Origin: Mytilus edulis
Taxonomy: Eukaryota
DNA: 64,000 bases
Assembly: GCF_963676685.1 (NCBI RefSeq)
Contig: NC_092352.1
Span: 20,708,001 to 20,772,000 of the forward strand
Direction: 5' to 3'
The notes under the pieces were generated by a model. The model was not told the origin of the DNA and searched no databases. It worked only from the letters and a program-made list of their open reading frames with translations. The translations under genes were made by a program, and so were the position numbers. Of the stretch, positions 27,901-60,900 are shown one piece after another; positions within the stretch are counted from its first letter, which is position 1, and each line of letters starts with the position of its first letter.

Positions 27901-30900
27901 TATATAGTTCTTGGATGTTACAACTGGGAAAGTCACAGAAACATTAGAGCAGGTTGGTACAATATATAGTTCTTGGATGTTACAACTGGGAAAGTAACAG
28001 AAACATTAGAGCAGGTTGGTACAATATTTAGTTCTTGGATGTTACAACAGGAGAGATCTTGGTCGTAATGAAAAATACAAACACATATATTCTGAACGAA
28101 AACACAGGGAAAATTACAGGCATATCAGAACATGTTGGTTCAAAATTTCCATTATAAAACATTACACCTTTTTGGTTTGAATAGAAGTGAAAGTGTCAGT
28201 TATATTCCTGAAAAGAATAAAATGTTATTTTATGAATGTTTCTGTTTATGTCACCCCATAAGCTCCTAATGACCTTATTTGTCTAAATTATATGTGTATA
28301 GAAATCAAATAATGAAATTGATTTCTACCTGGTTAAAACGGTGTGCTAAAAGATTTATTTTATTTACTCTCCCAGACAGTATAAAATGTAACAAGAGGCA
28401 AACAATAATAATTCATATAATATACAGAGTATAGCATTAAAAATATACATACATTTGTTTTTGTAATGTACAACAAATTAAGAGTACAACTGACCTTATC
28501 TGGCCTTTACCTGCCTTTTAATTGTAGCACATAATTAATATAACCGTGATGAGTAGCTTTGCTTGACCCAAATTAGTTCAATTTTTGGGTATTCCTAATT
28601 TCGACCAGTTAAAACAAAAATACTAGCAAGGAAAAGAGGTGAATATGTATGTCTCTCTATATTTACTTCTAAAAGCAAGGTGCACATCCATATACAAGGC
28701 TGCAATAACCATCAATAAATTTTTAGCTTTTATGATGAAAATTACCTTCAGTTTTTAGCTCATCTGGAAAAAGGTAATGTGATCTATTGTCATAGCATGA
28801 AGAAAAAAACCCTTACAAAACAATGTAGTTTGTCTTTGTATTGTCCCTTGAATGACTACATCATTATCCATTTGATCCCAGTACATCATCAAAACCCACT
28901 GAATAAGAAAACAACCCCAACTAATTATAACCAAACAAACATAAAATCTTAAAACCTCTAACATGACAACTGTTTCAATTTGATAACTAATCGTTCAATG
29001 ACTCAAAGAATGTTCAAATTTTAGCCGGCCATTGGTTAAATCCCTAAATGTAACTTGAAGGAATAAGTAACAAAAATAACCCATCAAAATGCCCATTGAC
29101 TGAACAGGTATGAGGTAACATACATTTGTGTTTCTCTATTTTAAGAGGGTGGTAAAGGGTTTATTTCGTGCAGTGTGTTTTGCCATTTTTATGTGCAGCC
29201 GTGAAAAAGGTTCCTTATTCACCTTGGTTCATGAAATTGGTAAAGAGATCAACATGCAAGAATTTTTTAATTTCTCGTTCATCTTAAAATGGCAATTTTA
29301 TTTCGTGTTCTTCTGTGCAGATATCCCCCCCCTTTTATGCCCCTCTTTTAACAGTTATACATGTTTACAGAGTAAGATAAATTATATATTTTACATGTTT
29401 TGGGAGGAAGATAAATTATATGTTTTCATGTTTTAGGAGGAAGATGAAGAAATCACCTGTTATTGTATCACACCTGATGACAAGGTAAATATTTTATTAA
29501 ATTTCAAATGAGATTCACTGGGCAATGTTTTCAGAACATTAGCCAGAATATATTTTCTTTTTTAAAACACAAATACCTCAACATTTATTTCCATATGATT
29601 TCAATGTGACAGAAAATTGATTGATAGGCTTCATATCCATAAAATAAGTTTGTCCAACAAACTAGAAATACAACAATCAATGACGACAGATTTTTTTGGT
29701 TTATAGAATTTAAAATTCAAGCAGTGAACATATTCCTATATATATATATATTGATGAATTGTAATTTAGTACTTCAAGCTTAGTAATGCCTTTATTTTAA
29801 CTCTAAATTTAATTATGTGAATTGCTATCCTCATTTTACAAATTGAGAAACTAAATATTTGTTTAACTGAAACTTATAAAACTTATAATAGTCTTCACCA
29901 GTTCATTATCAACTCCGAGGAGTCGATATTAAAAATTGAACGATGGACAGTCAGTGCGTGAATTTTTCTTGCTACCTGATTGGAAGATATTACGAGACGT
30001 GAATAATCAAAGTTTGTTGATTGGTTAGGACAATCCAAACCTAGTAAATGTCCTTCAATCCCGTAGAGTATTGGATTTGTCCTCTCTATTTTAGCAATTA
30101 GATTTTGCCTGGTCATTAATCATGCATATTCATGATATTGGTACACAGGTAACTTTTATCTATATATAGTCGAATCTTCTGGAGTTTCGTAAACAACAAC
30201 GTTAAACGATATATACTACTTCATAACGTGTGACCTCACGTGTGTGGTAAAATTTGTTGATTGATGCATGTGGCTATTCTTGTAAATAAATTAATATACA
30301 AAGCGAGAGCACTTTCCATTTTCATCAGCTAAGAGTAGACTAGCCCTTTTTGAAAGGCTAATGCTTGTTGTCACATTATACTTGAATTGTTTTTCCTTTT
30401 TCATTTTTGGGCAGTAAGAGTTAGTTATCCTTCGTTCCACATATACAAAAGAGGGACGAAAGATACCAAAGGGACAGTCAAACTCAAATCTAAAACAAAC
30501 TGACAATGCCATGGCTAAAAATGAAAAAGACAAACAAAAAACAGCACACATGACACAACATAGAAAACTAAAGAATAAACAACACGAACCCCCCAAAAAA
30601 CATGGGGTGATCTCAGGTGCTCCGGAAGGGTAAGCATATCCTGCTCCACATGTGGCATCCGTCGTGTTGCTTATGTGATAACAAATCCGGTAAATAGTCT
30701 AATTACAATGTAGGCAACTGACTCTTCTCATAAAAAAAATAAAAATACATTTGTGTCTGTATTTTATTTCTCATTTACATGTTGTACTGTTAAATTAATC
30801 ATCCTTAATCAGATTAGGATTTTTGATATTTTGATTAGGAAATAAAATATCTTTATCTTATCTTTAGTATTGGTTATCTTAGCTTATCAATTTATACAGA

Positions 30901-36900: not shown

Positions 36901-39900
36901 ACTGAATGCTTTCATCTGAATAAATATTTTATTGGCAGATATAAGCAGTTTTCATAGAAAACACATCTGTAAATATTTTGTCTTTTAGTAATCCTGTTCC
37001 ATTGTAAAATTAGTGTTTCCCCTTTAAATGTACATTAAACAGAAATATTGTCATTAAAAAAAAAACTTTCTAAATATGGTCTAAGTTGAGAAGACATTTC
37101 AATATTATAAGTTTTCAGTTGCATATTTTTAAATTAAATTATATCATTCCAGGATAACAGCATAAGGATGTGGAACCTTGACCCAGAAACAGGGATGGTT
37201 CACTGTTGTGGTGAAGGTCAAGGTCACACAAGTTCTGTAGGGTCTATAATCTTTTCTAGGTGAGTTTAAAAGATGAGTAAGACTGTTACATACATTAGAC
37301 ATGTTAGAGAAGGAGAAATTATTTCTTGGCAAAAAAAAAAGAAGTCAAAATGATAAACAGACAGGGGAAAAATTCCACCTAGAAATTGATTACCACAAAC
37401 CCTACAGAAAACCCAGGGTGAAATCTAGTTCTTCGGAAGAATGAGACTTTTCTGCTCCACTATTGACCCCTGTCATGTTGCTTAGGTATACAGGAAAACT
37501 CCTAGTAATTCATAGTATTTGGTATTGTAAGGAAAGAACAAGAAAGGAGAACAGGACTGGCTAGGACAAATCAAACACACCCATGATTAGCAGTGTTTCA
37601 TATTTTGTCTAACAGTCAACCAAAAAATGATTGCATTGATGAAACTTTTTGAGAGCTGACTACAAGCTTACCATTTTTGAAAATTTGTAAATTTATCAAA
37701 TTTTTTTCAAAACTTCACAAATTTTCTGGTACAAATTACACAATGGCAAGAATAACTGTGTTGAAAATAAATCTCTGACTTTTATGTATGCATTTTTGAT
37801 AATAGTATTGTGACAAGAAGATCTGTTTGAACTTGTTTTAGTTTAAGTGGAAAGTTTGTTGTAAGTGGTGGAGAAGACTGTACAATTAAAATGTGGGATG
37901 TCAGTGATGCTAAATATAACCTACACTGTCGAGCTACAGAACGGGCACATGACAAAGATATAAATAGCATTGCAGTATCACCTAATGATAAATATATAGT
38001 CACTGCTTCTCAGGATAAAACTGCCAAGGTATGTTACATTTCAAAACATGGGACTTCACTGCATAGTTATGTTGCATCATAAAACATAGAAATTACCAAA
38101 TTGATTATCACAAGACTGCAATTAGCAGCAGTATTCACTTTACCCCCTGCAACATTTAAGTTCATGTTTTTGTAACCTTGTCTGTTCATCAAATAACTAG
38201 CAGGGTATTTGATGTCCTTACTCCTCTTTTACATTTCAAGCTGGAAGCTTTTTTAATTTTTAGAATATTTATAAATACTTAAGACACATGCATTTTATCA
38301 GGATTTAATTTCTTTACTAAATAATTATTGACGAAGTTTTACATTTAAGGCCAATCGTTTTTTCAGCTTAATATATTATACAGTTAAATATCCAGAACTG
38401 ATCTGTCAACCGTAATGGAAGCTTCATTTAATTGTATATTTCAGTTATGGGTCAGTAAAGATTTATCCATGATTGGAGTATTACGAGGCCACCGGAAGGG
38501 AATTTGGTGTGTCCAGTTTTCACCTGTTGATCAGGTAAAAGAATTTATTTCACAATGATTTGTAAGATATTTGAAAATTCAAATAGTGAAATTTCTTTGT
38601 GTTCATAGACTTTCTTTTTAGCTCACCTGTCCCGAAGGGACAAATGAGCTTATGCCATCACTTGGCGTCCGTCGTCGTCCGTCGTCTGTCGTCGTCTGTC
38701 GTCGTAAACTATTTCAAGAATCTTCTCCTCTGAAACTACTGGGCCAAATACTTTCAAACTTTAACTGAATGTTCTTTAGGGTATCTAATTTATAAATTGT
38801 ATCCGAAGTTTTGATCTATCAACAAACATGGTCGCCATTGCTAAAAATAGAACATAGGGGTCAAATGCAGTTTTTGGCTTATAACTCAAAAACCAAAGCT
38901 ATTTAGAGCAAATCTGACATGGGGTAATATTGTTTATCAGGTCAAGATCTATCTGCCCTGAAATTTTCAGATGAATCAGACAACCCGTTGTTGGGTTTGC
39001 TGCCCCTGAATTGGTAATTTTAAGGAAATTTTGCTGTTTTTGGTTATTATCTTGAATATTATTATAGATAGAGATAAACTGTAAACAGGAATAATGTTCA
39101 GCAAAGTAAGATTTACAAATAAGTCAACATGACGGAAATGGTCAGTTGACCCCTTTAGGAGTTATTGCCCTTTATAGTCAATTTTTAACCATTTTTCGTA
39201 AATCTTAGTAATCTTTTACAAAAATCTTCTCCTCTGAAACTACTGGGCCAAATACTTCCAAACTTTAATTGAATGTTCCTTAGGGTATCTAGTTTGTAAA
39301 TTGTATCCGAAGTTATGATCTATCAACAAACATGGTCGCCATTGCTAAAAATGGAACATAGGGGTCAAATGCAGTTTTTGGCTTATAACTCAAAAACCGA
39401 AGCATTTAGAGCAAATCTGACATGGGGTAATATTGTTTATCAGGTCAAGATCTATCTGCCCTGAAATTTTCAGATGAATCAGACAACCTGTTGTTGGGTT
39501 GCTGCCCCTGAATTGGTAATTTTAAGGAAATTTTGCTGTTTTTGGTTATTATCTTGAATATTATTATAGATAGAGATAAACTGTAAACAGAAATAATGTT
39601 CAGCAAAGTAAGATTTACAAATAAGTCAACATGACGGAAATGGTCAGTTGACCCCTTTAGGAGTTATTGCCCTTTATAGTCAATTTTTAACCATTTTTCG
39701 TAAATCTTAGTAATCTTTTACAAAAAATCTTCTCCTGAAACTACTGGGCCAAATACTTCCAAACTTTAACTGAATGTTCCTTAGGGTATCTAGTTTGTAA
39801 ATTGTATCCGAAGTTATGATCTATCAACAAACATGGTCGCCATTGCTAAAAATAGAACATAGGGGTCAAATGCAGTTTTTGGCTTATAACTCAAAAACCA

Positions 39901-42900
39901 AAGCATTTAGAGCAAATCTGACATGGGGTAATATTGTTTATCAGGTCAAGATCTATCTGCCCTGAAATTTTCAGATGAATCAGACAACCTGTTGTTGGGT
40001 TGCTGCCCCTGAATTGGTAATTTTAAGGAAATTTTGCTGTTTTTGGTTATTATCTTGAATATTATTATAGATAGAGATAAACTGTAAACAGGAATAATGT
40101 TCAGCAAAGTAAGATTTACAAATAAGTCAACATGACGGAAATGGTCAGTTGACCCCTTTAGGAGTTATTGCCCTTTATAGTCAATTTTTAACCATTTTTC
40201 GTAAATCTTAGTAATCTTTTACAAAAAATCTTCTCCTGAAACTACTGGGCCAAATACTTCCAAACTTTAACTGAATGTTCCTTAGGGTATCTAGTTTGTA
40301 AATTGTATCCGAAGTTATGATCTATCAACAAACATGGTCGCCATTGCTAAAAATGGAACATAGGGGTCAAATGCAGTTTTTGGCTTATAACTCAAAAACC
40401 GAAGCATTTAGAGCAAATCTGACATGGGGGTAATATTGTTTATCAGGTCAAGATCTATCTGCCCTGAAATTTTCAGATGAATCAGACAACCTGTTGTTGG
40501 GTTGCTGCCCCTGAATTGGTAATTTTAAGGAAATTTTGCTGTTTTTGGTTATTATCTTGAATATTATTATAGATAGAGATAAACTGTAAACAGAAATAAT
40601 GTTCAGCAAAGTAAGATTTACAAATAAGTCAACATGACGGAAATGGTCAGTTGACCCCTTTAGGAGTTATTGCCCTTTATAGTCAATTTTTAACCATTTT
40701 TCGTAAATCTTAGTAATCTTTTACAAAAAATCTTCTCCTGAAACTACTGGGCCAAATACTTCCAAACTTTAACTGAATGTTCCTTAGGGTATCTAGTTTG
40801 TAAATTGTATCCGAAGTTATGATCTATCAACAAACATGGTCGCCATTGCTAAAAATAGAACATAGGGGTCAAATGCAGTTTTTGGCTTATAACTCAAAAA
40901 CCAAAGCATTTAGAGCAAATCTGACATGGGGTAATATTGTTTATCAGGTCAAGATCTATCTGCCCTGAAATTTTCAGATGAATCAGACAACCTGTTGTTG
41001 GGTTGCTGCCCCTGAATTGGTAATTTTAAGGAAATTTTGCTGTTTTTGGTTATTATCTTGAATATTATTATAGATAGAGATAAACTGTAAACAGGAATAA
41101 TGTTCAGCAAAGTAAGATTTACAAATAAGTCAACATGACGGAAATGGTCAGTTGACCCCTTTAGGAGTTATTGCCCTTTATAGTCAATTTTTAACCATTT
41201 TTCGTAAATCTTAGTAATCTTTTACAAAAAATCTTCTCCTGAAACTACTGGGCCAAATACTTCCAAACTTTAACTGAATGTTCCTTAGAGTATCTAGTTT
41301 GTAAATTGTATCCGAAGTTATGATCTATCAACAAACATGGTCGCCATTGCTAAAAATAGAACAGGGGTCAAATGCAGTTTTTGGCTTATAACTCAAAAAC
41401 CAAAGCATTTAGAGCAAATCTGACATGGGGTAATATTGTTTATCAGGTCAAGATCTATCTGCCCTGAAATTTTCAGATGAATCAGACAACCTGTTGTTGG
41501 GTTGCTGCCCCTGAATTGGTAATTTTAAGGAAATTTTGCTGTTTTTGGTTATTATCTTGAATATTATTATAGATAGAGATAAACTGTAAACAGGAATAAT
41601 GTTCAGCAAAGTAAGATTTACAAATAAGTCAACATGACGGAAATGGTCAGTTGACCCCTTTAGGAGTTATTGCCCTTTATAGTCAATTTTTAACCATTTT
41701 TCGTAAATCTTAGTAATCTTTTACAAAAAATCTTCTCCTGAAACTACTGGGCCAAATACTTCCAAACTTTAACTGAATGTTCCTTAGGGTATCTAGTTTG
41801 TAAATTGTATCCGAAGTTATGATCTATCAACAAACATGGTCGCCATTGCTAAAAATGGAACATAGGGGTCAAATGCAGTTTTTGGCTTATAACTCAAAAA
41901 CCGAAGCATTTAGAGCAAATCTGACATGGGGTAATATTGTTTATCAGGTCAAGATCTATCTGCCCTGAAATTTTCAGATGAATCAGACAACCTGTTGTTG
42001 GGTTGCTGCTCCTGAATTGGTAATTTTAAGGAAATTTTGCTGTTTTTGGTTATTATCTTGAATATTATTATAGATAGAGATAAACTGTAAACAGAAATAA
42101 TGTTCAGCAAAGTAAGATTTACAAATAAGTCAACATGACGGAAATGGTCAGTTGACCCCTTTAGGAGTTATTGCCCTTTATAGTCAATTTTTAACCATTT
42201 TTCGTAAATCTTAGTAATCTTTTACAAAAAATCTTCTCCTGAAACTACTGGGCCAAATACTTCCAAACTTTAACTGAATGTTCCTTAGGGTATCTAGTTT
42301 GTAAATTGTATCCGAAGTTATGATCTATCAACAAACATGGTCGCCATTGCTAAAAATGGAACATAGGGGTCAAATGCAGTTTTTGGCTTATAACTCAAAA
42401 ACCGAAGCATTTAGAGCAAATCTGACGTTGGGTAATATTGTTTATCAGGTCAATTTCTATCTGCCCTGAAATTTTCAGATGAATCAGACAACCTGTTGTT
42501 GGGTTGCTGCCCCTGAATTGATAATTTTAAGGAAATTTTGCTGTTTTTGTTTATTATCTTGAATATAATTATAGATAGAAATAAACTGTAAACAGCAATA
42601 ATGTTCAGCAAAGTAAGATCTTCAATTAAGTCAAATTGACCAAAATTGTCAATTGACCCCTTAAGGAGTTATTGCCCTTTAAAGACTTTTTTTCACAATT
42701 TGTTCATCATGTTGACTTACTTTAAAAAATCTTCTCCTTTGAAACTGCTGTATCAATTTCAGCCAAACTTAGGCTAAATGAGTTTCAGAGTATCTAGTAT
42801 AAATTTTATATTTTATTTCCTTGTATGTCAAGAAACATAGCTCCTATGGCTAAAATAGAACATAGGAGAAAATGATTATTTTTTTTGGCTTTTGAAGAAA

Positions 42901-45900
42901 ATAGGACAATCCAAAAAACATTTAAATAAATTGAAAAGCCAAAATAATCATTGATGAGAGATTTAACCAAAAGAATTAAGGTGAGCGATTCAGGCTCTTG
43001 AGAGCCTCTTGTTTATTTATAAATATCATGTTTTCCTCTAATCATTTGAGTATTTTAAGATAAAAAAAATTATGCTGTTGTAGAAAAAATGAAAATGTGA
43101 AAACAGTACATGTTTTCCATCACAGATTTTATTTTTTTACTTTAACATCAGTTTAATTAAATACTTAAAGTCATATGAAAAGAGTGGCTGGTGAAAAATA
43201 ATGTTTATCCAATTCTTGAACCAATAAACTTATATATCATAAACTTAGTCTTCTGAGCACAATTTTATTTTTCTCTGTCTGTTATGATTAAACAAATATG
43301 GCAGTTCATTAATTGCCGTGTTTTGAAGCAGAAGTTTATGGATTGTCACCTTATAGTAAACAATCAACAAAAAGCATGGATATTGAGCATGTGTTTAACA
43401 TATACAATCAGATAATTGTTTATTTTATTGACAGATTCATGCGTATTGCAATCACCGGATTTTTACGAGACGAGTCACGCTAAGGTCACTTGCATATAGG
43501 AAAAATATGTCGGCGAATTGCTTCCTGGAAGCAAGCAATTAAAATAAAGTAAACTTTTTCTGAATGTGAACAAATAATGAGTTTTCTTTAGGAAAAAGTA
43601 TATGTACATAAGTTTTATAATGAAAACTGAAAACTATCCATTTAGTTAAAAAAATCATATGCATCATTTTTTTTCAATTTTAGGTTTCATATGACTTTAA
43701 ATCTTTTGAAATATAAAGACAATTATGTCGTAGAATTAACTAAAATATTCAGGTCAAATATGCATAGTGCAAAGGTGATCTATGGACAAGAAGGAATTTG
43801 AATTATTCATTTCTGTAAAATTCCATTATAAGATGCTTTACCTATGTTTCAGTGTGCTGTTACCTCATCAGCAGATGGTACCATCAAGATTTGGTCATTA
43901 TCTGACTTTACCTGTGTCAAGGTAAGATATTCAGGGTTATTAATTACTGTGTATCATTATTAATCATAGAATACCAATTATTGTGGTTTTCGTGGCTACA
44001 GGTACAAATTTTCTATAGGCTTGTATGCAGACATTTTTAAAACCATTAAAATTGAATATCCGCAAAAATACATTTTTTTTCATCTGCAATGAATAAGTGA
44101 ATCTACAGTTTCGGACTAAATTTGTATCTGGGTGAGAACTTTTAAGATGTCAGGTACATTTTTGTACTTGAATAATCTGACTATACCTATGTCAAGATAG
44201 AACAAATGATGGATAGACTCATTTCACAAAAAATCTTTGGACAAAAAACTTGCATGTCATGAACATTTTATTTTAACCTGTGATAATTTTTTGTTGTAAG
44301 ATTTTTAATTGTAAAGAACCATTGGTATGTGCATGATCATAGTTTTGTTTAACATTCGTTAAAAATCATTCAGTCAGAAATCAAACTACTATCTCAGTAC
44401 AATAGATATCAATACCAACAAAAAAAGATAATGCTGACACACACAAAGACACTTATAGCGAACCCTATGATAGTTTTCCATAGATTCACCTGCAAGTTAC
44501 CTGTCGATTTAAACTTTTGGCAGTTCTATTGTCCCATCTAACAAATACAACAGGTATTGTTCTCTGTATAGTTTATTCACCAGGACCTTTAAATTTCTTC
44601 TAGGAGAAATATATCACTCATTGATTAATATACCCGAACAAAAAATTGAACTGTCAATGATGAAAAAATACTTATATCAATACTAAGAAAGGACTCACAA
44701 AACTGCATGTGGTGTTGTATTTATTCAATACCAAAAACTCGTTTTTAATGTGTTCAATATTAATAATGTTACCTTATCCAAGCATCATTTATGATGTGAA
44801 GGATAAGGTGCATTATATGAAGAAGCCAAAGGGCTTCGAGGGTTAATAAGTGAACCTTTACTTTATGTCAAGGCCGCACGCCTTTTTTCACAGCTGAGTG
44901 ATTTTTTGTCTGACCACTACTATATAAGCCCGTGCAGAGTAGTGACCAGCCTCTTTTTAAATAACCAAAGCCGCTATTGGCATTTATTGGTCTAAATATT
45001 TATTTTTGGGACGGGCGTATTACTGATTATATAATTTGGGAGGGTACATATTAACCCTCGAAGCCCTTTGGCTTCTTCATATAATGCACCTTATCCTTCA
45101 CATCATAAATGATGCTTGGATAAGGTAACATTATATATCATAATCCTGGGCTTGCTCAGGTTAATAAGTGAACTCTTTGTAGCTCCAATAAATGCAACTT
45201 CCAAAACAGAATAAGAAATAAATGGAAATTAATAACCAACTAATCTCATGAACAATACCAGTAAAAAACTTGAACAGAGATATAAACAAAGAAATTCACC
45301 AAATATAGATATCCAACACAAAACTAATCTGAAAATCAGATCATTCTGACAATTTTTTGTTTAAGACGGACAAGTCTTTGCTCTCAAGTCTTTATTCCAC
45401 ATACTTTTAAATTTCATCAAATACCAATATAGTCTAGTTAGAACCAGTATAGAGCAAATCTTTCATCTAAAAATTATTGTAACAACACAGAAAAAATAAA
45501 AATATATGATTAATTCTTTTAATCTTGTTGTCTATCAATATGCATCACACAATATAATTGGAAAAACAATAATAATGTCCATCACTAGTTAATAAATCTT
45601 ATGTATGTCCATACACGCAACGCGATATCATCACAAATGTCCTTTCACTATTCACTATTATGAATCAACATCTGGAATAATGGTTCCTCCATCTCCAATC
45701 TGTTAGTTCCTTAGACAGTACATCTCCTGATGTAGAAAAACCCTGGAACTGTATCTCTAAGTCATTGTCAGCATCAACATGATCAGGCTGTAAAAGTATG
45801 ATTAAACACTGAATGAACATAATTTGAATTTGTATTGTCTACCTCAATATCCTTACAGTAAAACTTTTTGAAGGTCTGAGCTGATGCCCAATTTGCTGTT

Positions 45901-48900
45901 TTCAGGATATCATTTAATGATATACCTGCTCTTTTAGCTGCAGAAGAGGATGCAGATCTGTATGAATGAGCTTTAAATTTCAACACATTTATGCCTGCAT
46001 TAGACAGTACCAATTTTAACCATCTGGCAATTGAACAGCTTGTTACAGCTTTTAAAGTTCTGAATGAAATAAACAATTTACTACTTTTTCTTAAGTCTTT
46101 AGTTCGGTGAATATAATGTTTTAAAGTTTCAACAGGACAAATTTCTTTTTTCTGAAAGACAGGAATAATAACATCTTGTCCTATGTTTTTAGGTCGTGTC
46201 GTCTTTAATAAAGTTGTGACACGAAATATAAATGATGTGCCTGTACTGAGAACAGAGTTTAAATTAAGACTTGCAAGTGTTTGTGATCTTTGAGCAGATG
46301 CTAGAGCAATTAAAGCAACACATTTGAGAGTTAACATTTTTAAATCTAAATCTTGTAACGGGTACAGAGATTCTAAATAGCTCAATACTTTGCCAACATC
46401 CCAAGTAAACAAATATCTTGGTCTTGGGGGTCTCAGATTAAACACACCCTTCAAAAATCTTTGAATATAACTGTTATTTTCAAAAGATAAGTTACCCAAT
46501 AAAGTCAGTGTCTGACATATTGCTGATTTGTGACTATTTATACAGCTATAAGATCGTCCTTTTTGAAACAAAATGGACAGATAATCTAAAAGTAACTTTA
46601 CAGATGGAGAAGTGGGACTAGTTTGTCTTGAATTACACCACAAAACCCAGCTTCTCCAAGAGTATTCATACTGAACATTGGTTGACTTTCTCCAAGATTT
46701 AAGAAAGATTTTTGTAGTTTTGTCTGAAAAACCTTGATTAAGGAGATGTTTCCTGAAACAAGACAGGCGATAAGAAACATTTTTCTTGTGTTCATTGTAT
46801 GACTTTGATTGTTGTGTGCTAGAGTTAGCAAGTTTGACAACTGAGGCAATTTTACAGGAAAATCTATTAATGCTTTCAATAACTTTGGATACCATAACTG
46901 AGTTGTCCATACAGGGACGATTAAAATTGCCCTGCTTACCTGATCGTCTTCTATCTTTTGAAGTACTCTGCTGATTTGACTGAAAGGAGGAAATATATAA
47001 GGATATAATTTATGCCATGAAAATGAAAAAGCATCAGTTGCATAAGCATCAGGATCTGGAAACCAGCTTACAAAATTATTCAATTGGTTATTAAGCCTTG
47101 AGGCAAACAAATCCGTATCTGGGATGAAAAAATGTTTGGTTACTTCATTAAAAACTGATTCATTGAGTTTCCACTCTGAAGTGTCATTAAAATTTCTTGA
47201 TAAATTATCTGGTATAATATTTTCTTTCCCTGGAATATGAACAGCAGATAGTAAAACTTTGTTTTTTATACACCAATGCCATATTTGTTTTGTTATTTCT
47301 AATAAAGATAAAACTGATCCTCCTTGATTATTTATGTAGTTTACAGCAGTGGAACTATCAGATTTTACACAAATGTGTGTTCTTTCTACGTGACAGCAAA
47401 GTGATATTATGCTAAAATAGATAGCTTTTAATTCTAGAATATTAATGTGTAGACACTGCTCCTCCAAACTCCAATGACCTTGAGTTTGCTTTCCATGAAA
47501 AACAGCTCCCCAACCATTGAGGGAGGCATCTGTATGTAAATAATAACTTGGGGAATCATTTCTAATAGGTCTCCCATTAACTGTTTTAACATTTTCTAAC
47601 CACCAAACTATTTCAGATTTGCCTTCTACTGATATGTTCAAAAATGAATTGAAATTGTTATTTGATGCATGTAAAGCTTGTGTTTTGTCTAAATCTAAAT
47701 ATCTATGAAACAAGTGAGCATATTGTACTGCATAATGTGCAGATGAATAAAGTCCTGTTAATTGTGCTAGACTTCTAATTGATACTTTGTGAGCTTTAAG
47801 CATTTTATTTGACAGTTCAATTATTTTCCGTACTTTCTCCTCTGGTAAAAATACCTTAAATAGTACTGAATCTATAATATATCCCAAAAATATAATTCTA
47901 TTGGTTGGAATAAAAACTGATTTTTCAATATTGATGTCAAACCCAACTGACTCTATAAAGGTTTTAACCTTTTCTGTATTTTGGACTGCCAAATCAAAGT
48001 TTTCTGCTTGCAAAAGGGAATCATCAATGTAAAAATATGAATCAATACCCATGCTCCGAATATGTGAAAAAATTACTTTCAGAATTTTTGTAAATACTCT
48101 TGGAGCAGAAGCAATACCGAAAGGTAGACATTGAAATTCATATAACTTTTCATTCCATATGAATTTTAGATATTTTCTGTCCGATTCATAGATTGAAATG
48201 GAAAAATATGCATCTGTCAAATCCAAAGATGTAAAAAAGCTATTTTTAGAAATTCCTTTTAAAATCAAATCTAGCGTTTCTTGTTTAAAATGGTGATAGC
48301 TTATAAATTGATTCAATGGTTTCAAATTGATGACTGGCCTAAATTTTCCATTTTTCTTTTTTACTAGAAATATATTTGAAATAAACTGTTCTGATTCATC
48401 AAAAGATTCCTTGATAGCACCTTTCTCAAGCATATCAACTATTTCTTTGTCAATAAGGGCCTTTTCCTTATTGTTAAATTTTATAGGAACAGGAATTTTT
48501 TCCTGAATTGGCTTTTCATCAAATTCTATCTTATATCCCTTAATTGTAGAAATAATCCAATTGTCTTTTGTTAAATATTTCCAATTTGAAATAAAATTTT
48601 TCAGTTTACCCGACTTTCTTTTAATATTTATACTTTTATTTCTCACCTTTAAAATCTTCTTTTCTGATTGAAGGTGTTGGGTCTGTTTCCTCTCAATTGA
48701 CCCCGTGGGCTCTGATAACTTTGTCTTGGCTGATAGCCCCTTCTGCCTAAAAAACGGCTTCTTCCCCTGAAACTTCCTCTGTAGTTTGAATTTCTACCAT
48801 AGCTACTAGTAATGTTCTTGTTTATTTTATTAATCTCATTGATATCTTTCAATCGCTTGCCAACTTCATCTCCAAAAAGGTTAGAACCTACATCTTCATT

Positions 48901-51900
48901 GCGATTGCAAAGTTGGTGATATTTCTTGTCTATGTGTGGCTTTAAAGACATACGTCTTTTAATTGATAGTTCAAAGTGAGTATTGCTCAAGATTGCCAAA
49001 GCTTTAGAAATATTTTCCCTCATAAGTTTTACATCTGGAGTTTTGGATTTCAAAATTTCAGCCACTCTTATCAATGGTACCATACCACAACCCAGCGATT
49101 TTTGTATAGTTTGTAGATTCAAATCTGCAGTTTTAGCTTTTCTTTCAAGAAATTGCCATATCTCAGCATTAACTGGGGGTGCTACAAGACTTTTGCAATT
49201 TACCGGTATCTTCATTTCTCTCGTCATTACTGACACATCTGATTTCTTCTTACAAATATTGTCAAAAACTTTTGCTAATGATGCGCTTACCTCTTCATCA
49301 TATTTTTCATCATCTTCAAATATTTTAGGTAATTCATAGTCAAATTCGTCATCAGATGCTATAACCTGAGGTTCATTCTCTTCGTCAGAAAAGATATTGT
49401 AGTGAGTGTCAATCACCTGCTCATCAGACTCATTCTCAGAAAATTCCATGTTATTGTCAATATTTTTACTGGACATTTCATTATTGTGACTCAAAGTGGA
49501 TACTAGAGTATCCGACAAACCTTTAAATAAAGTTTTAAGCAACTCTGACTGGTCAACCTGATTCTTTGCAGCAGTTTTCTTTACTGTGCCTGTGCCAGGT
49601 TTCGTAGCCTTCGTACCTTTACCACGTTTTTTGACCGGACTTACTGTTATTCCGCTCCCTGATGGCAACTCATTGTCCATCTCAGTCACCTGCCTTTTAG
49701 GTGTCTTTTGCTTACTGGCTAAAGCCTTGCCTTTTGTAGAGCTCGTACTCTTCTTACCTTTTTCAGTCTGTTGTTGTTTTTGTTTTTGTGTGACTGCCAT
49801 TCGGATGTCCTCGGCAATTAATATTTGTGCTTCCGGGTTATCGAACTCCGGGTCATTAATGTTCTCAACTTGAGAAAAACCAGAAAACGAAGCATCAACT
49901 TCTTCGTCTGACGCAAATAGTTTTAATATTTCATCGTCATTGTCACTTTCACTGTCGCTTAAACGCGATGTACAGCGCGACATAACTTCTGTATATAAAC
50001 AGCTGACAGATTCTGCCAAGTTTTGAAATTTATTTTCAATGTTTCCGATTCGGATAAATTATTTTACAACAGAGTCTGTTGCAAAACTTTTATTTCGTGT
50101 ACTAAATCGAGTCGACTTAACCACGTGCGGCCTTTTAAAATAAAGAGGCTGGTCACTACTCTGCACGGGCTTATATAGTAGTGGTCAGACAAAAAATCAC
50201 TCAGCTGTGAAAAAAGGCGTGCGGCCTTGACATAAAGTAAAGGTTCACTTATTAACCTGAGCAAGCCCAGGATTATGATATATAATGAGTTAAAAATTAA
50301 AAGTTGATTTCTGATCAAATATTCAATAAATATTTTTGTGCGTTTGATAAATAAAAATTTGAATATTATTATTTTTAAATTAAGGTCTTCATAAACATAG
50401 TCTATAAATTAACAACAAAAAAACATGCAAATTCATTGGAAAATACTAAAAAATGTGTCTAAAATAAACTTTTTATTATTAAATCAGATTTTATATTGAA
50501 CAGATTGAAAATATATTAATGATATATTGAATAAATACAATATTGCATACTGTATGCAATATTGTATTTATTCAATATATCATTAATATATATGTGAGTT
50601 TATAGAAGTATTTCAATAAAAAAACAGATAATTTTTTGGTCAGGTAAATTAATCAATGAGTGATATATTTCTCCTAGAAGAAATTTAAAGGTCCTGGTGA
50701 ATGAACTATACAGAGAACAATTTACCTGTTGTATTTGTTAGATGGGACAATAGAACTTACAAAAGTTTAAATCGACAGGTAACTTGCAGATGAATCTATG
50801 GAAAACTATCATAGGGTTCGCAATAATATGTTTATTTTGTTAAGGAGAAAATAAATGACAATATCTATTATAGTGCATACTTTATTTCTTAAGCTGTTGA
50901 GTATACAAATATGGTAGGAATGCAAATGTAAAAAAGAATTACGAATTATATTAAAATTGTTTTTATATGTCTTTTCAGACTTTTGAAGGACATGACAGTT
51001 CTGTTTTAAGAGTGGTCTTTTTAACTAGAGGCATGCAGTTATTATCATGGTTTGTATACATGTTTTCTTACATTACATTGTGGAACATGTGTTGCACATA
51101 TAGACATGTATAGATATAAGAAGATGTGGTATGGGTGCCAATGAGTCAACTCTCCATCCAAGTCACAATTTTTTTAAAAGTAAACCTTTATGTAGGTCAA
51201 AGTATGGTCTTAAACATAGAGCCTTGGCTCACACCGAACAGCAAGCTATAAAGGGCCCCAAAAATGACTAAATTTTTTGATTTACACTCATATATGTCTA
51301 ATATCAGTTGCTTTACTTCTGAAGATATTTATTATATAACTTAGCAAATGACAAAATATTTTAAAAGTACACTCATATATAATGTCTATATTTTAATGGT
51401 TTTTTAGTGGGTTCAGATGGATTATTAAAAATCTGGACAATAAAAACAAATGAATGTGTAAAGACATTTGATGAGCATGATGATAAAGTTTGGGGGCTTG
51501 CTGTCAGTTCTGATGAAAACCGTGTTATCACTGGTGGTGCAGACTCAACCATTCTGGAATGGCAAGTAAGTCAAGAATAGTGCAATACTAAGGACCAGAT
51601 ACAGTCATACCTCCAGTGGTGATTAGTTTTTTGTTTGTTGAACTATTATTTAGGAATATCAATGATGGGTAATCTTCTTTTCTTCTCACAAGCTTATTTT
51701 ATTGCTCAAATATCTTTTAGGTAATAAATAGACATTTTTGAAGAACCTTGTAAAACATGCTTGCCTTCTGTTTGACCTTGTTTTGCACATGGTTTGATCA
51801 TATCGAAAATTCTATTTGCCAACTATACCTTTATTTTTAAAGTGATAAACACATGGCTTCCTATTTCTTCTGCAAAGATAAATATTGTTTAATTTTTCTC

Positions 51901-54900
51901 CCATGTATTGTTTATAGTAGCTAATATAGACTGTGCAAGTATGTTTAAAATCTTGAACTATTACAGGATATAACACAGGAAGTAGAAGACACCACAAGGA
52001 AAGAACAAGAACAGTTTATTATCAGGTAATATAAATATACATGTTTTAAAAGCATCTTAAATTAGGTTTATATATTTGATACAAGATTGAACATAAAGAA
52101 AATTCTGCATGATAGATATTGTTTTACAATGAGAATTGTTAATACTGTAGAATGTAGATAACTTATTATTCATGGGGTATTAACTTTTGTGGATTTGTTG
52201 GTATAGGTGAATCATGAATTTAAATGTTCGATTAAGAAATGAAGTCTTAACTTGAAAAATTGTGTTGTCTCTTGCTTTTTTCAAGTGAATGTCAGATATG
52301 ATATTTCCCCCCTTTTTTCCAGAGAACAGGAATTGTCAAACTTGATTCAGCAGAAGAAATACCACAAAGCAATTGCATTGGCAATTAAGTTAGAACAACC
52401 CTTTAGAGTGCTGACCATTTTAAAAGGTTTGTCTAATTAGAATGTCAGAAAATAACAAATAAAATAATAGCCATGTAAGACTTTGATGAAAGCTTCAACT
52501 TCCACAGATTTTTCGACCTATGATAGTAGAGGGGCATTATGTTTTCTGGTCTGTACGTCCGTTCGTCCGTTAGTCCGGATTCAGGTTAAACATTTTGGTC
52601 AAGGTAGTTTATGATGAAGTTGAAGTCCAATCAACTTTAAACTTAGTAAACATGTTCCCCATGATATGATCTTTCTAATTTTAGTGCCAAATTAAAGTTT
52701 TGACCCCAATTTCACGGTCTACTGTACATAGAAAATGATAGTGTGAAGTTCAGGTTAAAGTTTTTGGTCAAGGTAATTTTTGATGTAGTTGAAGTGCAAT
52801 AAACTTGAAACTAAGTACACATGTTCCCTATGATATGATCTTTCTAATTTAAATTCCAAATTAAAATTTTGACCCCAATTTCACGGTCCACTGAACATGG
52901 AAAATGATACTGCGAGTGGGGCATCCGTGTACTATGGACACATTCTTGGTTTTTATACGACGCAAAATTTGAAATTTTTTTCGTCGTATATTGCTATCAC
53001 GTTGGCGTCGTCGTCTGCGTCGTCGTCGTCGTCGTCGTCGTCGTCCAAATACTTTTAGTTTTCGCACTCTAACTTTAGTAAAAGTGAATAGAAATCTATG
53101 AAATTTTAACACAAGGTTTATGACCACAAAAGGAAGGTTGGGATTGATTTTGGGAGTTTTACCCAACATTTTAGGAATTAGGGGCCAAAAAGGGCCCAAA
53201 TAAGCATTTTCTTGGTTTTCGCACTATAACTTTAGTTTAAGTTAATAGAAATCTATGAAATTTTGACATAAGGTTTATGACCACAAAAGAAAGGTTAGGA
53301 TTGATTTTGGGAGTTTTGGTTCCAACAGTTTAAGAATTAGGGGCCAAAAAAGGGCCCAAATAAGCATTATTCTTGGTTTTCGCACAATAACTTTAGTTTA
53401 AGTAAATAGAAGTCAATGAAATTTAAACACAATGTTTATGACCACAAAAGGAAGGTTGGTATTGATTTTGGGAGTTTAGGTCCCAACAGTTTAGGAATTA
53501 GGGGCCAAAAAGGGACCCAAATAAGCATTTTTCTTGGTTTTCGCACCATAACTTTAGTATAAGTAAATAGAAATCTATGAAATTTAAACACAAGGTTTAT
53601 GACCATAAAAGGAAGGTTGGTATTGATTTTGGGAGTTTTTGTCCCAACAGTTTAGGAATAAAGGGCCCAAAGGGTCCAGATTTAAACTTTGTTTGATTTT
53701 ATCAAAAATTGAATAATTGGGGTTCTTTGATATGCCGAATCTAACTGTGTATGTAGATTCTTAATTTTTGGTCCCGTTTTCAAATTGGTCTACATTAAGG
53801 TCCAAAGGGTCCAAAAATTAAACTTAGTTTGATTTTAACAAAAATTGAATCCTTGGGGTTCTTTGATATGCTGAATCTAAAAATGTACTTAGATTTTTTA
53901 TTATTGGCCCAGTTTTCAAGTTGGTCCAAATCGGGGTCCAAAATTAAAATTTGTTTGATTTCATCAAAAATTGAATAATTGGGGTTCTTTAAGCCAAATC
54001 TAACTGTGTATGTAGATTCTTAATTTTTGGTCCCGTTTTAAAATTGGTTTACATTAACGTCCAAAGGGTCCAAAATTAAACTAAGTTTGATTTTAACAAA
54101 AATTGAATTCTTGGGCCTCTTTGATATGCTGAATCTAAACATGTACTTAGATTTTTGATTATGGGCCCAGTTTTCAAGTTGGTCCAAATCAGGATCCAAA
54201 ATTATTATATTAAGTATTGTGCAATAGCAAGAAATTTTCAATTGCACAGTATTCAGCAATAGCAAGAAATCTTCAATTGCACAGTATTGTGCAATAGCAA
54301 GAAATCTTCAATTGCACAGTATTGTGCAATAGCAAATATTTTCAATTGTACAGTATTGCACAATAGCAAGAAATATCTAATTGCACAATATTGTGCAATA
54401 GCAAGAAATTCCAATTGGATTTCAATTGGAGTTATCTTTCTTTGTCCAGAATAGTAGTTGAATCAACTTAAATCATTGTTTTATACAATATACAATGTAT
54501 ATTCACTTTTACTACCAACTGATAGATTAAAACAATCTTTACCATTCAGTGATAACAAGCACTTTTTTTACATTTTAATATTTTATGATGTATTTAAATG
54601 AGTAGTTATTGTTGCAAACTTCATTAGAAATTTGAATTGAGATCAGTTTTGAAATAAGGGAAAGGGGGATGTGAAAAAAAAATTGGAGGGTCAATTTTTT
54701 TCATTTCAGATTTCATAAATAAAAAGAAAATTTCTTCAAACATTTTTTTGAGAGGATTAATATTCAACAGCATAGTGAATTGCTCAAAGGCAAACATTTT
54801 TTTTTAAGTTCATTAGACCACGTTCATTCTGTGTCAGAAACCTATGCTGTGTCAACTATTTAATCACAATCCAAATTTAGAGCTGAATCCAGCTTGAATG

Positions 54901-57900
54901 TTGAGTCCATACTTGCCCCAACTGTTCAGGGTTCAACCTCTGCGGTCGTATAAAGCTGCGCCCTGCGGAGCATCTGGTTTTTATCTACAATGAGTTTATC
55001 TTCAGTGTGCATAAAACATTCAGACGGCTTTAGGTATTATCTAATTGTGTAGCATTATGAATTTTTTAAAAGAAAAGAAAAAAAGAGTCTACATAATTTG
55101 GGCTGAAAGCAATAATTATATATAACACTGAAATTTCAAATGGGATCATTTTAACTTCAGAAGAAATGATGCTGGATAAAGATTTGTAATCAATGTGCTT
55201 TGGGTGAACATTGATAAAGAGATCAAAATAATTGAACATTCAAAAAGTCAGATAATAAAATCAACGGTACCAATTTTGTTGCACCAGATGCGCATTTCGA
55301 CAATATATGTCTCTTCAGTGATGCTCGTGGCCAAAATATTTGAAATCCAAAGCTTATATAAAAGATGAAGAGCTATAATCCAAAATGACTTCAAATAATT
55401 GTAAAATTAAATGAGGCTTAGTTATAAGACGATATTTGATTAAAATTTTTATAAACCAATAGTTATGCTAAGAGTTAACATGAGAAGCGCATGCGCAGAT
55501 AGAGGTCACTATTCAGAGATATTCATGTATAATTGAATAAATTTCTGGGTAGGTAATGATGAAAAAAGGGTGGGCATGTTAACTCTTAGCATAACTATTG
55601 GTTTATAAAAATTTTAATCAAATATCGTCTTATAACTAAGCCTCATTTAATTTTACAATTTTTATAAACCAATATTATGCAAGAGTTCCCATGAGATTTG
55701 AGAGCCAATTTACTTGAATACGTGTAATTTATCCCTGTTGTGTAGGATTACAATAATGTATTGGATTCCCAAATTACTATAAATTAATATAGCAATCAGC
55801 TCACAATTAGTTATATATATCTATAACTGTTTCAACGACATACGGAATACCAATATATCTGTAGGCAACAAAGCCATTTCATAATATGGATTTTGGTAAT
55901 GATAAAGACATTTTCAAATAATATTGTATTAACTTATATACATCATGAACATTGGTACATTATAAGCAAAAACAAAACTATTTTCCACGAAGTACTCGTA
56001 CACTATAGTTATCATTGACCTCTTGAACAGTAACTGGTCTATTGTAAAATTGCCTAAAAGTAGACTCATTTGTCCATCCTGCTGATTTTAAAATAGAATT
56101 TACTGACACCCCAGCTCTAAGTGCTGCTGATGTACTAGCTCCCCTAGTACTGTGTGTTTTAAAAACAGAAGTATTTACACCTGCAAGCTTTAAAACCAAT
56201 TTAAACCAATTACTAATTGTTGACTTTGTTGGGTGATGGTATGGTTTTACAAATGTAACAAAAAGTTTTTGAGATGTACGTATTGCAGATGTTCTTTCGA
56301 TATAGGCGTTTAAAACTGTTACAATACACAGTCTTGTGTCATCAACAAATGCTGGCAAACATATTGGTGATAAATGTTTTCCTGGTTTTGAGGTTTTCAA
56401 AACCTCATTAATTTCAATTACAACATTGTCTTTTGTAATTTTCATAAAATCTAAATCTACACAATGTAACGTCTGTATTCTCTGTCCAGTAACTAGTGCT
56501 AATAACATGACTAATTTCAAAGTTAAACATCTCAGTGACAAAAGCTTTACAGGCGATAAAGTAATCAAAAATTCTAATACAACATTAACATCCCATGTTT
56601 GCTGATATCTAGGGAACATTGGTCGTTTATTATAAACTCCTCTGAGGAACCTTTTAACTAAAGGCCACTGACCAATCGGCAGTGTTTTTCCCAATGTCAA
56701 ATATGACGATAATGCAGATCGTGCTGTGTTAATAGAACTATATCCTACACCGGACTCGTATAAAACTGTCAAAAATTCCACTACATCCACCTCAGTTCGC
56801 GTAAAAATATCAATCTTTCGTTGACAACAAAATGTACACCATTTTTTGAGATATGTCCAATACTGTTTTTGTGTACTTTGTCTCCAGGATGAGATGACAA
56901 TTTCTGCAGCCTTTTTTGATAGTCCTGTATTTTGAACAATTTGCCCGACAATCTGAAGACACCCAAAATCAGTTTTTTCAACGGATGTTTCTTTTGAGGA
57001 TCTGTTGGCAGTATCAACAACTGTTGTCCTTTTTCCCTGGGTATTATGTAAGAATCCTGAACAATATGATGCAGTATTTGAGGGAACCAATGTTGAGTGC
57101 TCCACAAAGGTGCTATTAAGGTTATTTCTGCTTCCTCCAAAATCAGTTTTTGGATAACTTTTCCTACCATGCTAAAAGGAGGAAAAACAAATGAGTTAAA
57201 GTTAGTCCATCTTATAGAAAAAGCATCTACTGCTTCAGCATTAGGATCAGGTAAGTATGAAATATACCTCGATAACTGATGATTTATCCTTGAAGCAAAT
57301 AAATCAATATCATGCGGACCATATATTGAATTAATACACATAAAAACATTAGTGTTAAGTTTCCATTCTAGATCTGTATTATTAGAACGTGACAATTTGT
57401 CGGCTTCAACATTTGTTTTTCCCGGTAAATGACAAGCACTTAACCAAATGTTTCTGTGTATACACCATTGCCATATTTCCATTGTTAAGGTATTAAGAGA
57501 TTGAATTCTACCTCCCATTTTGTCTATATAGGTCACAGCTACCATATTATCCATGTATATTCGAACATGTTTATCAGATTTTGTTGAACAAAAACATTTA
57601 AATGCTAAAAACGCTGCTTTCAGTTCTAAATAATTTATGTGTAATTTCTGCTCTTCATAAGACCAAAAACCCTTGGTTTGAAGTTGTGTATTGTCGACAA
57701 CACCACCCCAACCAGTTTTTGAACTGTCTGTTTTTAAAATGATCTCAGGATCTTTTCGTACTAATGGTTTAAAACTAGACTCAACATGAGAAATCCACCA
57801 ATTTAACACATCTACTGATTCATTTGAAATGATGATTTTAGTGTCAAAATCGCCATTGTTTTGTTTTAAAAACTTGTCTTTTTCTATTTCTAAAGATTTT

Positions 57901-60900
57901 ATATATATAAGTGCATGTTCAACTCCTGGTTCGGCAGCAATCAATTTGCCTATAATCTGTGCAAATTGCCTGATTGACATTTGTCTGTTTTTAACATATT
58001 TACAGCATGTAAGTTTTATTGCTTGTGCTTTTTCAGTTGTAAGTTTAATTGTCATTGTTATTGAATTCACAACAAATCCTAAAAATGTAATTGTTTGTGT
58101 CGGTTCAAATACAGATTTGACAGGATGAATAGTAAAGCCTAATTTATCCAATAAGGTGACTGTATCAGAAATATTAATTGCACATTGCGAATAACTATCA
58201 CTGATCAAAAGACTATCATCAATGTAAGCTACATTTTTGTGTCCAATTTTTCTTAAATGTGAAAATGGCACTTTCAAAACTTTTGTAAATATCCTTGGCG
58301 CAGTTGTCAGCCCATTAGGCAAACATGTATATTCATACAACTGTTCATTCCAATAGAACCGTAAATATTTTCGGTCTTTGTGGTCAATAGAAATAGAATA
58401 ATATGCGTCTTTCAAATCAATAGAAGCAAACCAGCAGTTTTGTGACACACATTGTATTGCTGACTTTAATGTTTCCATTTTAAAATGGTGTTTTTCAATA
58501 TCATTGTTGAGAACTTTTAAATTTAAAATTACTCTACATGTACCATCCTTCTTTGGTCTTGTAAAAATATTTGAAACATATTGATTTTTAATATACGTCA
58601 CTGGTTTTATAATTTGTTTCTGTAAAAATTTATCTATTTCTAACTGTACCATATTTGTTTCATCTTTATCAAATTGTAATAAATTTGGTTCTTTGTTTTG
58701 ATATGGAATTTGCTCAAACTCAATTTGATACCCTTTTACAACATCTAAAACCCAGTTATCTGAAGTAAGACTCATCCAATTATCTAGGAATGTTTTCACT
58801 TTCCCACCAATGAAATTGTCTGGTGTGTTTGAAAATGTAAATTGTGTATTCAATTGCTGAACTGAAGTACTCACAGGCAAACTAATTTGCTTTGGCAATT
58901 CTAAAACTTCTTGTCCTGCTCTTGGAACTTCTTTTTGAACTTTTTCTTTTTGTAAGTGGGTTTCCCTAAAAAATCTTTCTTGTTTGATGGTTTGTCAAAA
59001 TGACGTTTTGGTACATGTACATATGGCTTCTTAAAAGTTTTCTTGTCATCATGTGATTTCTTTCCAACATTAAAATTGGTTTTGCCCAGTTTCTTCCCTA
59101 CTGTATATTCAGCATCCATTTCTTTGACTTTATCTTTGATGTCATTTCCAAAGAGAAAATCAGTTACTGGAACATCATCTTTGCATAAAGCTTTATATTT
59201 TGGTTGTATTTCTGCTTGTATTAAAGCTCTTCGTCTAAAAGTAATGTCTGCATACGTGACTTGAGTCATTTGGTACGCGTCCTTACAGAGTTGTGTAGCA
59301 GAGTGTACCTCTTCTGTCGTGAGTCCATCATTGGTTTGAGATTTACCAAGAAACATGTCCATTAAATACAGCATAGGACACGCTGCTTTGCCCAATAGGT
59401 TTTGATTTTTTTGTAGTTTGACGTCGTTCATTCTATTAGATATTGACATCTGTGACCAGATACCTGAAAAGGAAATGAATTCCTGTATTTTATGTCGGCC
59501 TCAATCAAATAATTTATATTGATTTGAATTAAATTTTAAAAAATACATTTACATGTACATGTATATAAATATATATTTATTTTCAAAGAATTGAATTTTA
59601 ATTAATTTTAAAATTTAACATGTACATTTTTGTACATGTATCATATGTTTAATAGTATATTTACTTTATATACACTCACCCAAATTAATTTTTGGGACTG
59701 TCAAACTGTGTACATTTTCTGGCTTTGCATACTTTTTGGTTAGCTCATCAACTTTGTTTTGCTTGGCCTTTTTTCTCAAGCCATCATTGACAACAGATGC
59801 CAGTTCATCATTTATCTTTGGACCAGCTTTCTCTTCAGTTACCATGAAGCCCTTCATATCTTCAATGACAGACATAGTGTCATTGTTTTTATTAGAAGTA
59901 CTATTACTGTTAATGTTAGTATGTATTTCTTGTTGATCAAGTTCATTGTCAGAATTATTTGAGCTTTCTGATTCACTTTCACTTGAGACATCAGATAAAG
60001 GGCTTGCTTCCCTTTGATTTTGTTTGTTGTTTTGTGATTGGCAAAGTTCTTGAAGTTCTTTCATGTAACTTTGTGTCAAAGACTCAGATTGTACTCGTGA
60101 TCCATGTCCGTGGCCACTTTCAGTTTCATATCTTTGTTTTTTAGAACTTGATGGGCTTGCGTCATCACTGGCAGATACAGTACATGTTGTACCTCGTTTG
60201 CCACATTTGTTTTTCTTAACTGGCGTGTTAGAATCAGTTCTTTCATTGTTCAACAATGCTTGTGTTATCATTTGAGTTTGTAGCAGTAACTGATACAGAT
60301 CCGGTTGTTTGTCAACATCCGGTGTTTGGTTGATTGACACATGTGACAATGGAGCTCCGCCCCCTACGCACAAATTGTCTACATTTTCAAGTCTAGCTTC
60401 AAACACAAGTTCATTATTAGAAGCGTTATCAATATTGCAGTGTTGTTGATTAACTTCATGAAAATGAAGAAATCTACTGTCATTCGAAGAATGTCTTTCC
60501 ATTTTGGAATGTTCTTCCTTTTCATCCGCCATTACGGTCGGATATTTGGACAGTCACACTGTGGTCACAAGAACGACCTCGACCGCAGTCGTCAGTCTTA
60601 TAATGTTCAAGGACCTATAACAGCAAACGTTGCTGATATCACTGTTCATCCATTGAACATAATAATAAATCCAATTACTAAGAATAGAATCAAAACTTTC
60701 AATAATAAGTTTCTAAAATTTTCCACGTGTTAACCTCTTAAAATCTGCTAACGCAGTAACCTCTATCTGCGCATGCGCTTCTCATGGGAACTCTTAATGA
60801 CAAATCAGTTAAAACTTAAATGCTATATCACTATGCATACCGAGTAAAGTCAGTCTCAAATTAATAAAATGTTATTTGTATTTTAAAATACTTCTATGGA

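Follow-up and report, generated by a model that had tools for sequence, protein, structure and literature searches.

The window, a stretch of 64,000 nucleotides from the Mytilus edulis genome, contains an intact DIRS1-like tyrosine-recombinase retrotransposon of about 5.5 kb, which we call DIRS-A. A second element, DIRS-B, lies 5 kb from it, and its reverse transcriptase (RT) is 47% identical to that of DIRS-A. DIRS-A has three open ORFs, encoding a Gag-like protein, Pol, and a tyrosine recombinase, and the coordinates of these and of the other features are given in Table 1. The element has inverted terminal repeats (ITRs) at its ends, with a 116-nt repeat (I3) that is 100% identical to 44841-44956, and it contains an internal complementary region (ICR), to which the 45-nt repeat I16 is also 100% identical. 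The ICR is complementary to both element ends, as is expected for a DIRS1-like element. The DIRS1-like elements in the available text of PMC3266345 share with DIRS-A the gag, pol (RT and, as putative regions in DIRS-A, RNase H and methyltransferase), and tyrosine recombinase genes, the ITRs, and the ICR with a right extension, as well as ends of the molluscan ATT type and a short overlap of pol and recombinase.

In Pfam searches, the RT of DIRS-A matched RVT_1 with E = 1.2e-22, and RTs of solved structure also matched. The recombinase matched Phage_integrase above the cut-off (E = 3.6e-7); its frame has 408 codons and overlaps pol by 409 nt. The methyltransferase-like domain is a weak match to Dam, with E = 0.0047 for DIRS-A and 7.5e-6 for DIRS-B, both below the curated Pfam cut-off. 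No Pfam profile matched an RNase H in DIRS-A pol, and the putative RNase H-like region is named from its acidic motifs. The Gag had no match among the Pfam profiles. A protein identical to it has been recorded with the name of a mussel, and there are relatives at 48-66%. A search with the NCBIfam profiles gave no matches.

Inverted repeats of about 200 nt (96%; 44453-44647 and 50630-50826) flank DIRS-A and are probably an older non-autonomous DNA element, and a 40-bp palindrome (50511-50591) lies beside the left end. Elsewhere, the window has a 715-codon Ser/Arg-rich low-complexity ORF on the minus strand (7667-9814), with a weak coiled-coil match only, and tandem arrays with units of 36 nt (10-2000), 62 nt (27045-28146), about 501 nt (38717-42728), and about 160 nt (17023-17670 and 53055-53700).

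Table 1. Positions of DIRS-A, DIRS-B, and their features in the window.
Feature	Position	Strand	Remarks
DIRS-A, DIRS1-like tyrosine-recombinase retrotransposon	44763..50287	-	ORFs, Pfam, inverted repeats I3/I9/I16
DIRS-A left inverted terminal repeat	50142..50287	-	I3, I16
DIRS-A gag-like ORF	48649..49983	-	444 aa from first ATG
DIRS-A pol frame	46598..48793	-	731 codons; RT, RNase H-like region, adenine-methyltransferase-like domain
DIRS-A slippery heptamer U_UUU_UUA, predicted -1 shift site	48748..48754	-	gag frame
DIRS-A trans-frame segment, 34 codons in pol (-1) frame	48647..48748	-	102 nt, no stop
DIRS-A 5-bp stem GGGCT..AGCCC	48707..48739	-	not supported as stimulator
DIRS-A intron over pol, 1667 nt, GT-AG	46980..48646	-	joint in X1 and X4 contigs
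DIRS-A tyrosine recombinase exon	45783..46979	-	398 codons
DIRS-A second intron, 1152 nt, GT-AG	45788..46939	-	joint 46940/45787 in X1 and X4 contigs
DIRS-A internal complementary region (ICR)	45046..45173	n/a	I9, I16
DIRS-A right inverted terminal repeat and right extension	44763..44956	-	I3, I9
DIRS-B intron inside gag, 216 nt	59464..59679	-	joint in 3 of 4 runs
DIRS-B slippery heptamer U_UUU_UUA	58967..58973	-	gag frame, then GGG
DIRS-B intron over pol, 1703 nt, GT-AG	57172..58874	-	joins -1 frame to recombinase frame
DIRS-B recombinase exon	55978..57171	-	397 codons

The gag ORF of DIRS-A ends with TAA at 48651-48649. Upstream of this stop, TTTTTTA (48754-48748) is read in the gag frame as CGT TTT TTA GGC, as had been claimed in a previous sequence-only reading of this DNA. 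The pol frame is -1 relative to gag. It follows a TAG, starts 13 codons ahead of the heptamer, and is free of stops into the RT; the peptide that had been given for it, FFRQKGLSAKTK..KILKVRNK, is correct. The reading had also stated that there is no ATG near the start of pol, and we find the first Met at codon 121 (48433), inside the RT. This Met would be residue 106 after the shift, while the RTs of solved structure match from residue 84-93, and 36 ATGs stand ahead of it. DIRS-A thus has two elements of the canonical eukaryotic -1 signal, a zero-frame X_XXY_YYZ heptamer inside the overlap and a downstream -1 ORF that is open from the heptamer and has no usable start. However, there are 98 copies of TTTTTTA on the two strands of the window, so the single site in DIRS-A proves nothing alone.

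The third element of the canonical signal is a stem-loop or pseudoknot that lies 5-9 nt past the heptamer and stimulates the shift, and none was found in DIRS-A by local folding and a pseudoknot scan. The stem proposed earlier does exist, beginning at 48739, 8 nt past the heptamer, with its partner at 48711, but the stimulatory role suggested for it was not borne out. The stem is no better than shuffled sequences, its pairing probability is 0.15-0.23, and the 78 nt downstream of the heptamer fold with z = -0.27. A simple pseudoknot scan of DIRS-A gave a score that was matched by 29 of 60 shuffles. The fold after the DIRS-B heptamer, with z = +0.31, likewise shows no stimulatory structure, and among the 15 families of this genome with pol in -1 that are described below, z is below -2 in only four, so that the folds give no general stimulator.

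A donor and an acceptor of splicing were predicted from the sequence of both elements first, and contigs then showed exactly those joints. The DIRS-A donor, aag|GTGAGA, comes 2 nt past the gag stop and has phase 0 with respect to the pol frame; the acceptor lies within the codons for FPPFS and has phase 0 with respect to the recombinase frame. The joint 48647/46979 was present in both of the contig runs for DIRS-A (X1 and X4, from two studies), and the corresponding joint of DIRS-B, 58875/57171, in all four (X8, X2, X9, and X10, from four studies), and all are GT-AG on the strand of the elements. These runs are assembled contigs flagged 'RNA?', from which rare forms are dropped, and among the runs listed as containing the sequence none is recorded as RNA. 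One contig of 2909 nt spans gag, the heptamer, and the recombinase. The DIRS-A intron is spliceosomal in character, with GT-AG ends, a pyrimidine tract, and a joint that is found in transcript-like contigs and not in the genomic copies scored. No joined genomic copy of DIRS-A was found among the 40 candidates scored, of 73; the nearest of them is a decayed copy on C2, 72% identical, with deletions at other points. The raw RNA runs X19 (29 reads) and X22 (13 reads) showed no joint, their read numbers being too low to inform. A third joint in X1 (47710/48192) was set aside, since it is not GT-AG and was seen at a depth of 3.9 in one contig. The gag intron of DIRS-B appears, from the pattern of ORFs, to be retained in the genomic copies L077 and L078, and short last gag ORFs are also seen in several other families.

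In the spliced DIRS-A RNA, the gag stop is still ahead of the joint, and it is the -1 segment, not gag, that shares its frame with the recombinase. Because the splice thus makes the -1 frame continuous with that of the recombinase, the same shift likely gives both a Gag-Pol and a Gag-recombinase protein. The sequence-only reading overlooked this splice, which likely lets one shift serve the recombinase as well. We propose the following route. The majority of ribosomes would terminate at the TAA of gag to give Gag, and a minority would slip back one base at U_UUU_UUA and read the 34 trans-frame codons, which would be common to both fusion proteins. If the RNA is unspliced, the shifted ribosomes would run on into the RT, RNase H, and methyltransferase regions, to give a predicted Gag-Pol of 1128 aa. 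If the intron over pol has been removed, they would instead enter the recombinase, to give a predicted Gag-recombinase of 844 aa. The second splice would drop the recombinase ORF, since this intron takes out nearly all of it, in frame, and with both introns removed, an exon of 40 nt would remain and the message would encode Gag only. That DIRS-A Pol is reached by -1 frameshifting as Gag-Pol seems to us very probable from the sequence, and the full model, with one shift giving Gag-Pol from the unspliced and Gag-recombinase from the spliced RNA, is probable. We infer the shift, its efficiency, and the fusion proteins as likely from the layout, its conservation, and the joints in the contigs.

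The conservation was assessed within this genome. A search with the RT gave 60 further loci, 62 together with DIRS-A and DIRS-B, which fall into 29 families at 80% RT identity, and one copy with intact layout was used for each family. Most of 20 extra genome loci fell within known families. F24 and F29 are broken and were excluded from the family counts. The pol frame is in -1 in 15 of the 27 classified families and in +1 in the other 12, of which F11 (L044) is a doubtful member. A donor at phase 0, located by pattern 2-26 nt past the gag stop, is present in 14 of the 15 '-1' families, and the 15th has AG|GTTAGT at phase 0, found by eye. The phase-0 acceptor is present in 12 of the 15, while F4, F26, and F28 have no acceptor at the FPPFS motif. 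The serine of FPPFS is encoded by AGY in 26 of 39 families, compared with 299 of 1183 serines (25%) elsewhere in pol.

These splice signals bear on the possibility that Pol is made by the -1 shift while the recombinase is translated separately from the spliced RNA, by re-initiation or a leaky start at an ATG past the gag stop. In DIRS-A, codon 24 of the recombinase exon is such an ATG and, on the spliced RNA, lies 71 nt past the gag stop, where translation of the recombinase could begin; a Met is found 8-40 codons past FPPF in 10 of the 14 '-1' families listed. However, there is no Met until codon 185 in DIRS-B, where it falls after the SAM-like domain (96-158), nor until codon 158 in F28, and the ATGs that do occur may have arisen only because the overlapping pol frame conserves Trp codons. 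Furthermore, the phase of the donor with respect to the pol frame, which is kept in 14 families by pattern, matters only if ribosomes come in the -1 frame. Thus, a separate start for the recombinase is unlikely, and we prefer the single shift that serves both enzymes.

The sequence-only reading called for a search for such heptamers across DIRS families, and in this genome the heptamer class is kept: within the gag/pol overlap, each of the 15 '-1' families carries a canonical heptamer that is read in the gag frame. This compares with an expectation of 2.0 families from the rate in upstream gag, 3.6 from codon shuffling, and 5.0 from synonymous recoding; since the families are related, multiplied probabilities would overstate their independence, and the counts are strong evidence but not formal probabilities. 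The other two frames hold a heptamer in only three families and one. The pol frame is open from the heptamer to the gag stop in all 15 families, for a sum of 417 codons (0.96 families expected), and upstream of the heptamer it is open for an average of 7.9 codons, where a chance run is 6.6. To judge from these comparisons of sequence, it is the position and frame of the heptamer across families that are beyond chance, and not the heptamer by itself. The heptamers used are U_UUU_UUA in eight families, A_AAA_AAC in five, and U_UUA_AAC and G_GGA_AAC in one each. The first is the HIV gag-pol site, and the other three are among the four most shifty heptamers in the available text of PMC5009743. The proposal that DIRS Pol arises by -1 frameshifting is therefore strongly supported by comparison for these 15 families, but not as a DIRS-wide model, because 12 of the 27 classified families have pol in +1.

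Alternatively, translation of pol could begin at an ATG of its own or at an internal entry site, or use a spliced RNA specific to pol, and the heptamer would then be a by-product of an A/T-rich stretch encoding Phe and Leu. The abundance of the heptamer in this AT-rich window, the lack of a stimulator near it in the folds and the pseudoknot scan, and a first pol Met that precedes the RT core in five of the 15 families are all in keeping with this. However, the excess of heptamers over the 5.0 families expected holds even with the Gag protein fixed, and the heptamer is exactly the point back to which pol remains open. In the other 10 families, the first pol Met is inside the RT core, as it is inside the RT in DIRS-A, and its position, from -58 to +111 codons around the core, is not conserved. 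Neither of the competing routes named in the sequence-only reading, a pol ATG or a spliced RNA for pol, was encountered: there is no conserved ATG, and no joint leading into pol was seen in the two contig runs for DIRS-A or the four for DIRS-B, from which, again, rare forms are dropped. We consider an independent start for pol very unlikely, and frameshifting at the heptamer is the preferred explanation. Slippage of a polymerase on the U6 run, changing the frame by an extra U in some transcripts instead of by the ribosome, is the least probable, for although one decayed genomic copy of DIRS-A (L108) has seven T in the run and RT slippage at U6A has been reported for HIV (PMC5737442, as available), the families with U_UUA_AAC and G_GGA_AAC have no long homopolymer yet fit XXXYYYZ in frame, and the contigs have no indel at the run, which is weak evidence since they drop rare variants.

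The '+1' families have a different site. UUU_CGN is present in the gag frame of the overlap in seven of the 12, where 0.36 are expected, and in none of the 15 '-1' families; F16, F11, F14, F22, and F23 are the '+1' families without it. A further '+1' family, L099, also has the motif, which sits 24-138 nt before the gag stop (L042, L047, L050, L054, L055, L057, L061, and L099). UUU_CGN is the +1 frameshift motif of influenza PA-X and the plant amalgaviruses (PMC5052127, in the text available), and the '+1' clade shares with these its location in the frame of the upstream ORF within the overlap, while DIRS-A and DIRS-B lack it. The seven families belong to an eight-family '+1' clade, sister to the '-1' families, in which the gag stop is always UGA-C, and the intact copies of this clade have a recombinase frame of about 960 codons directly after the UGA-C and in frame with it. 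An AG|GT donor is found 4-13 nt after the gag stop in the '+1' clade. The '+1' families of L049, L063, and L068 have neither the heptamer nor UUU_CGN in the gag frame, and upstream of their gag stop they have sites resembling donors, at phase 0 of pol.

Some elements have both a -1 heptamer and UUU_CG in a single gag tail (L126, L130, L132, L161, L169, and L092/L093), and the UUU_CG site has the form UCC_UUU_CGU in L132, L161, and L169. Of these, the families L126, L130/L132, and L161/L169, from outside this genome, have a long +1 frame for the recombinase and lack the FPPFS acceptor. Two-way frameshifting is possible in the elements that have both sites. We put forward tentatively, with somewhat less than even confidence, that recoding signals of viral type may be exchangeable parts in DIRS elements. 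In one clade, the -1 heptamer would be combined with the splice, so that one shift supplies both enzymes; a sister clade would use a +1 shift at UUU_CGN to reach pol and readthrough of UGA-C to reach the recombinase; and the mixed elements would have in one gag tail a -1 heptamer leading to pol and a UUU_CG +1 site leading to the long recombinase frame.

A scan of metagenomes extended the comparison. The best 80 of 456 loci gave 52 families, of which 27 were excluded because they had no Gag-profile match overlapping pol, and relaxed calls on these gave mixed results. In all 25 of the families kept from the best 80 of 456 loci, pol is in -1, and a gag-frame heptamer of canonical type occurs in 19 of them, compared with 2.1 expected. 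One of the four heptamers of the mussel genome is used in 17 of these 19. The six '-1' families without a canonical heptamer are L114, L118, L135, L140, L143, and L180. In 11 metagenome families, the codons for FPPF contain an AG acceptor, and 10 of these have the heptamer and 10 have the phase-0 donor. Among more distant Gags (P0005-P0017), FLG is retained 35-41 residues from the C-terminal end in five of 13. A search of viral contigs gave no relatives. At a similar place, the noncanonical '-1' families L114, L135, L136/L143, and L140 have N(U/C)U_UUU_CGN, a sequence that might serve both shift directions.

The arrangement in DIRS-A resembles that of HIV-1 and of animal LTR elements of the Ty3/Gypsy type (PMC5009743), in that U_UUU_UUA is read in the frame of gag, pol lies in -1, and the product is a Gag-Pol fusion, which is predicted here; the available text of that paper has no mention of 'DIRS'. 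DIRS-B also has a GGG codon after the heptamer, as does HIV-1 (PMC4373837, in the part available). Unlike HIV-1, DIRS-A does not have a stable stem-loop after the site, its pol has no protease or DDE integrase, and its integrating enzyme is predicted to be reached through the same shift together with a splice. For Ngaro, which is also a tyrosine-recombinase retrotransposon, a -1 shift from RT/RNase H into the recombinase was proposed by Poulter and Butler (2015), as quoted in the available text of PMC13003380. That shift is from pol to recombinase, whereas in DIRS-A it would be from gag to pol, with the recombinase joined by splicing that removes pol.

In retroviruses, spliced mRNAs express a downstream ORF, env, after the removal of pol, and env has its own start codon, with the donor located before gag or early in it. 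DIRS-A is like env in that pol is spliced out to express a downstream ORF. However, the DIRS-A donor is past the gag stop, and expression would therefore, unlike that of env, still depend on recoding.

The available text of PMC3266345 contains neither 'splic', 'intron', nor 'translat', uses 'frameshift' only for mutations, and gives no route of expression. The translation of DIRS1-like pol or recombinase is likewise not described in that text or in those available of PMC7192593, PMC3783388, PMC6681497, PMC5633606, PMC4495291, PMC4157794, and PMC9210276. In the literature searched, which did not include Goodwin and Poulter (2001) or Poulter and Butler (2015), neither a gag-pol shift of DIRS1 elements nor the splice past the gag stop is described, and a prior mention is possible. 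New here is the GT-AG splice, seen in transcript-like contigs, from 2 nt past the gag stop into the recombinase frame.

DIRS elements are common in animals and fungi. The proposed model would answer how their start-less pol and recombinase ORFs are translated, with named sites and junction peptides, and would account for the overlap of pol with the recombinase at the codons for FPPFS. The families also form a large natural collection of putative shift sites, seemingly without a local stimulator, and the proposal would correct gene models that treat the gag, pol, and recombinase ORFs separately. In this design, a single frameshift would set the ratio of Gag to enzymes, and splicing would split the shifted ribosomes between RT and recombinase.
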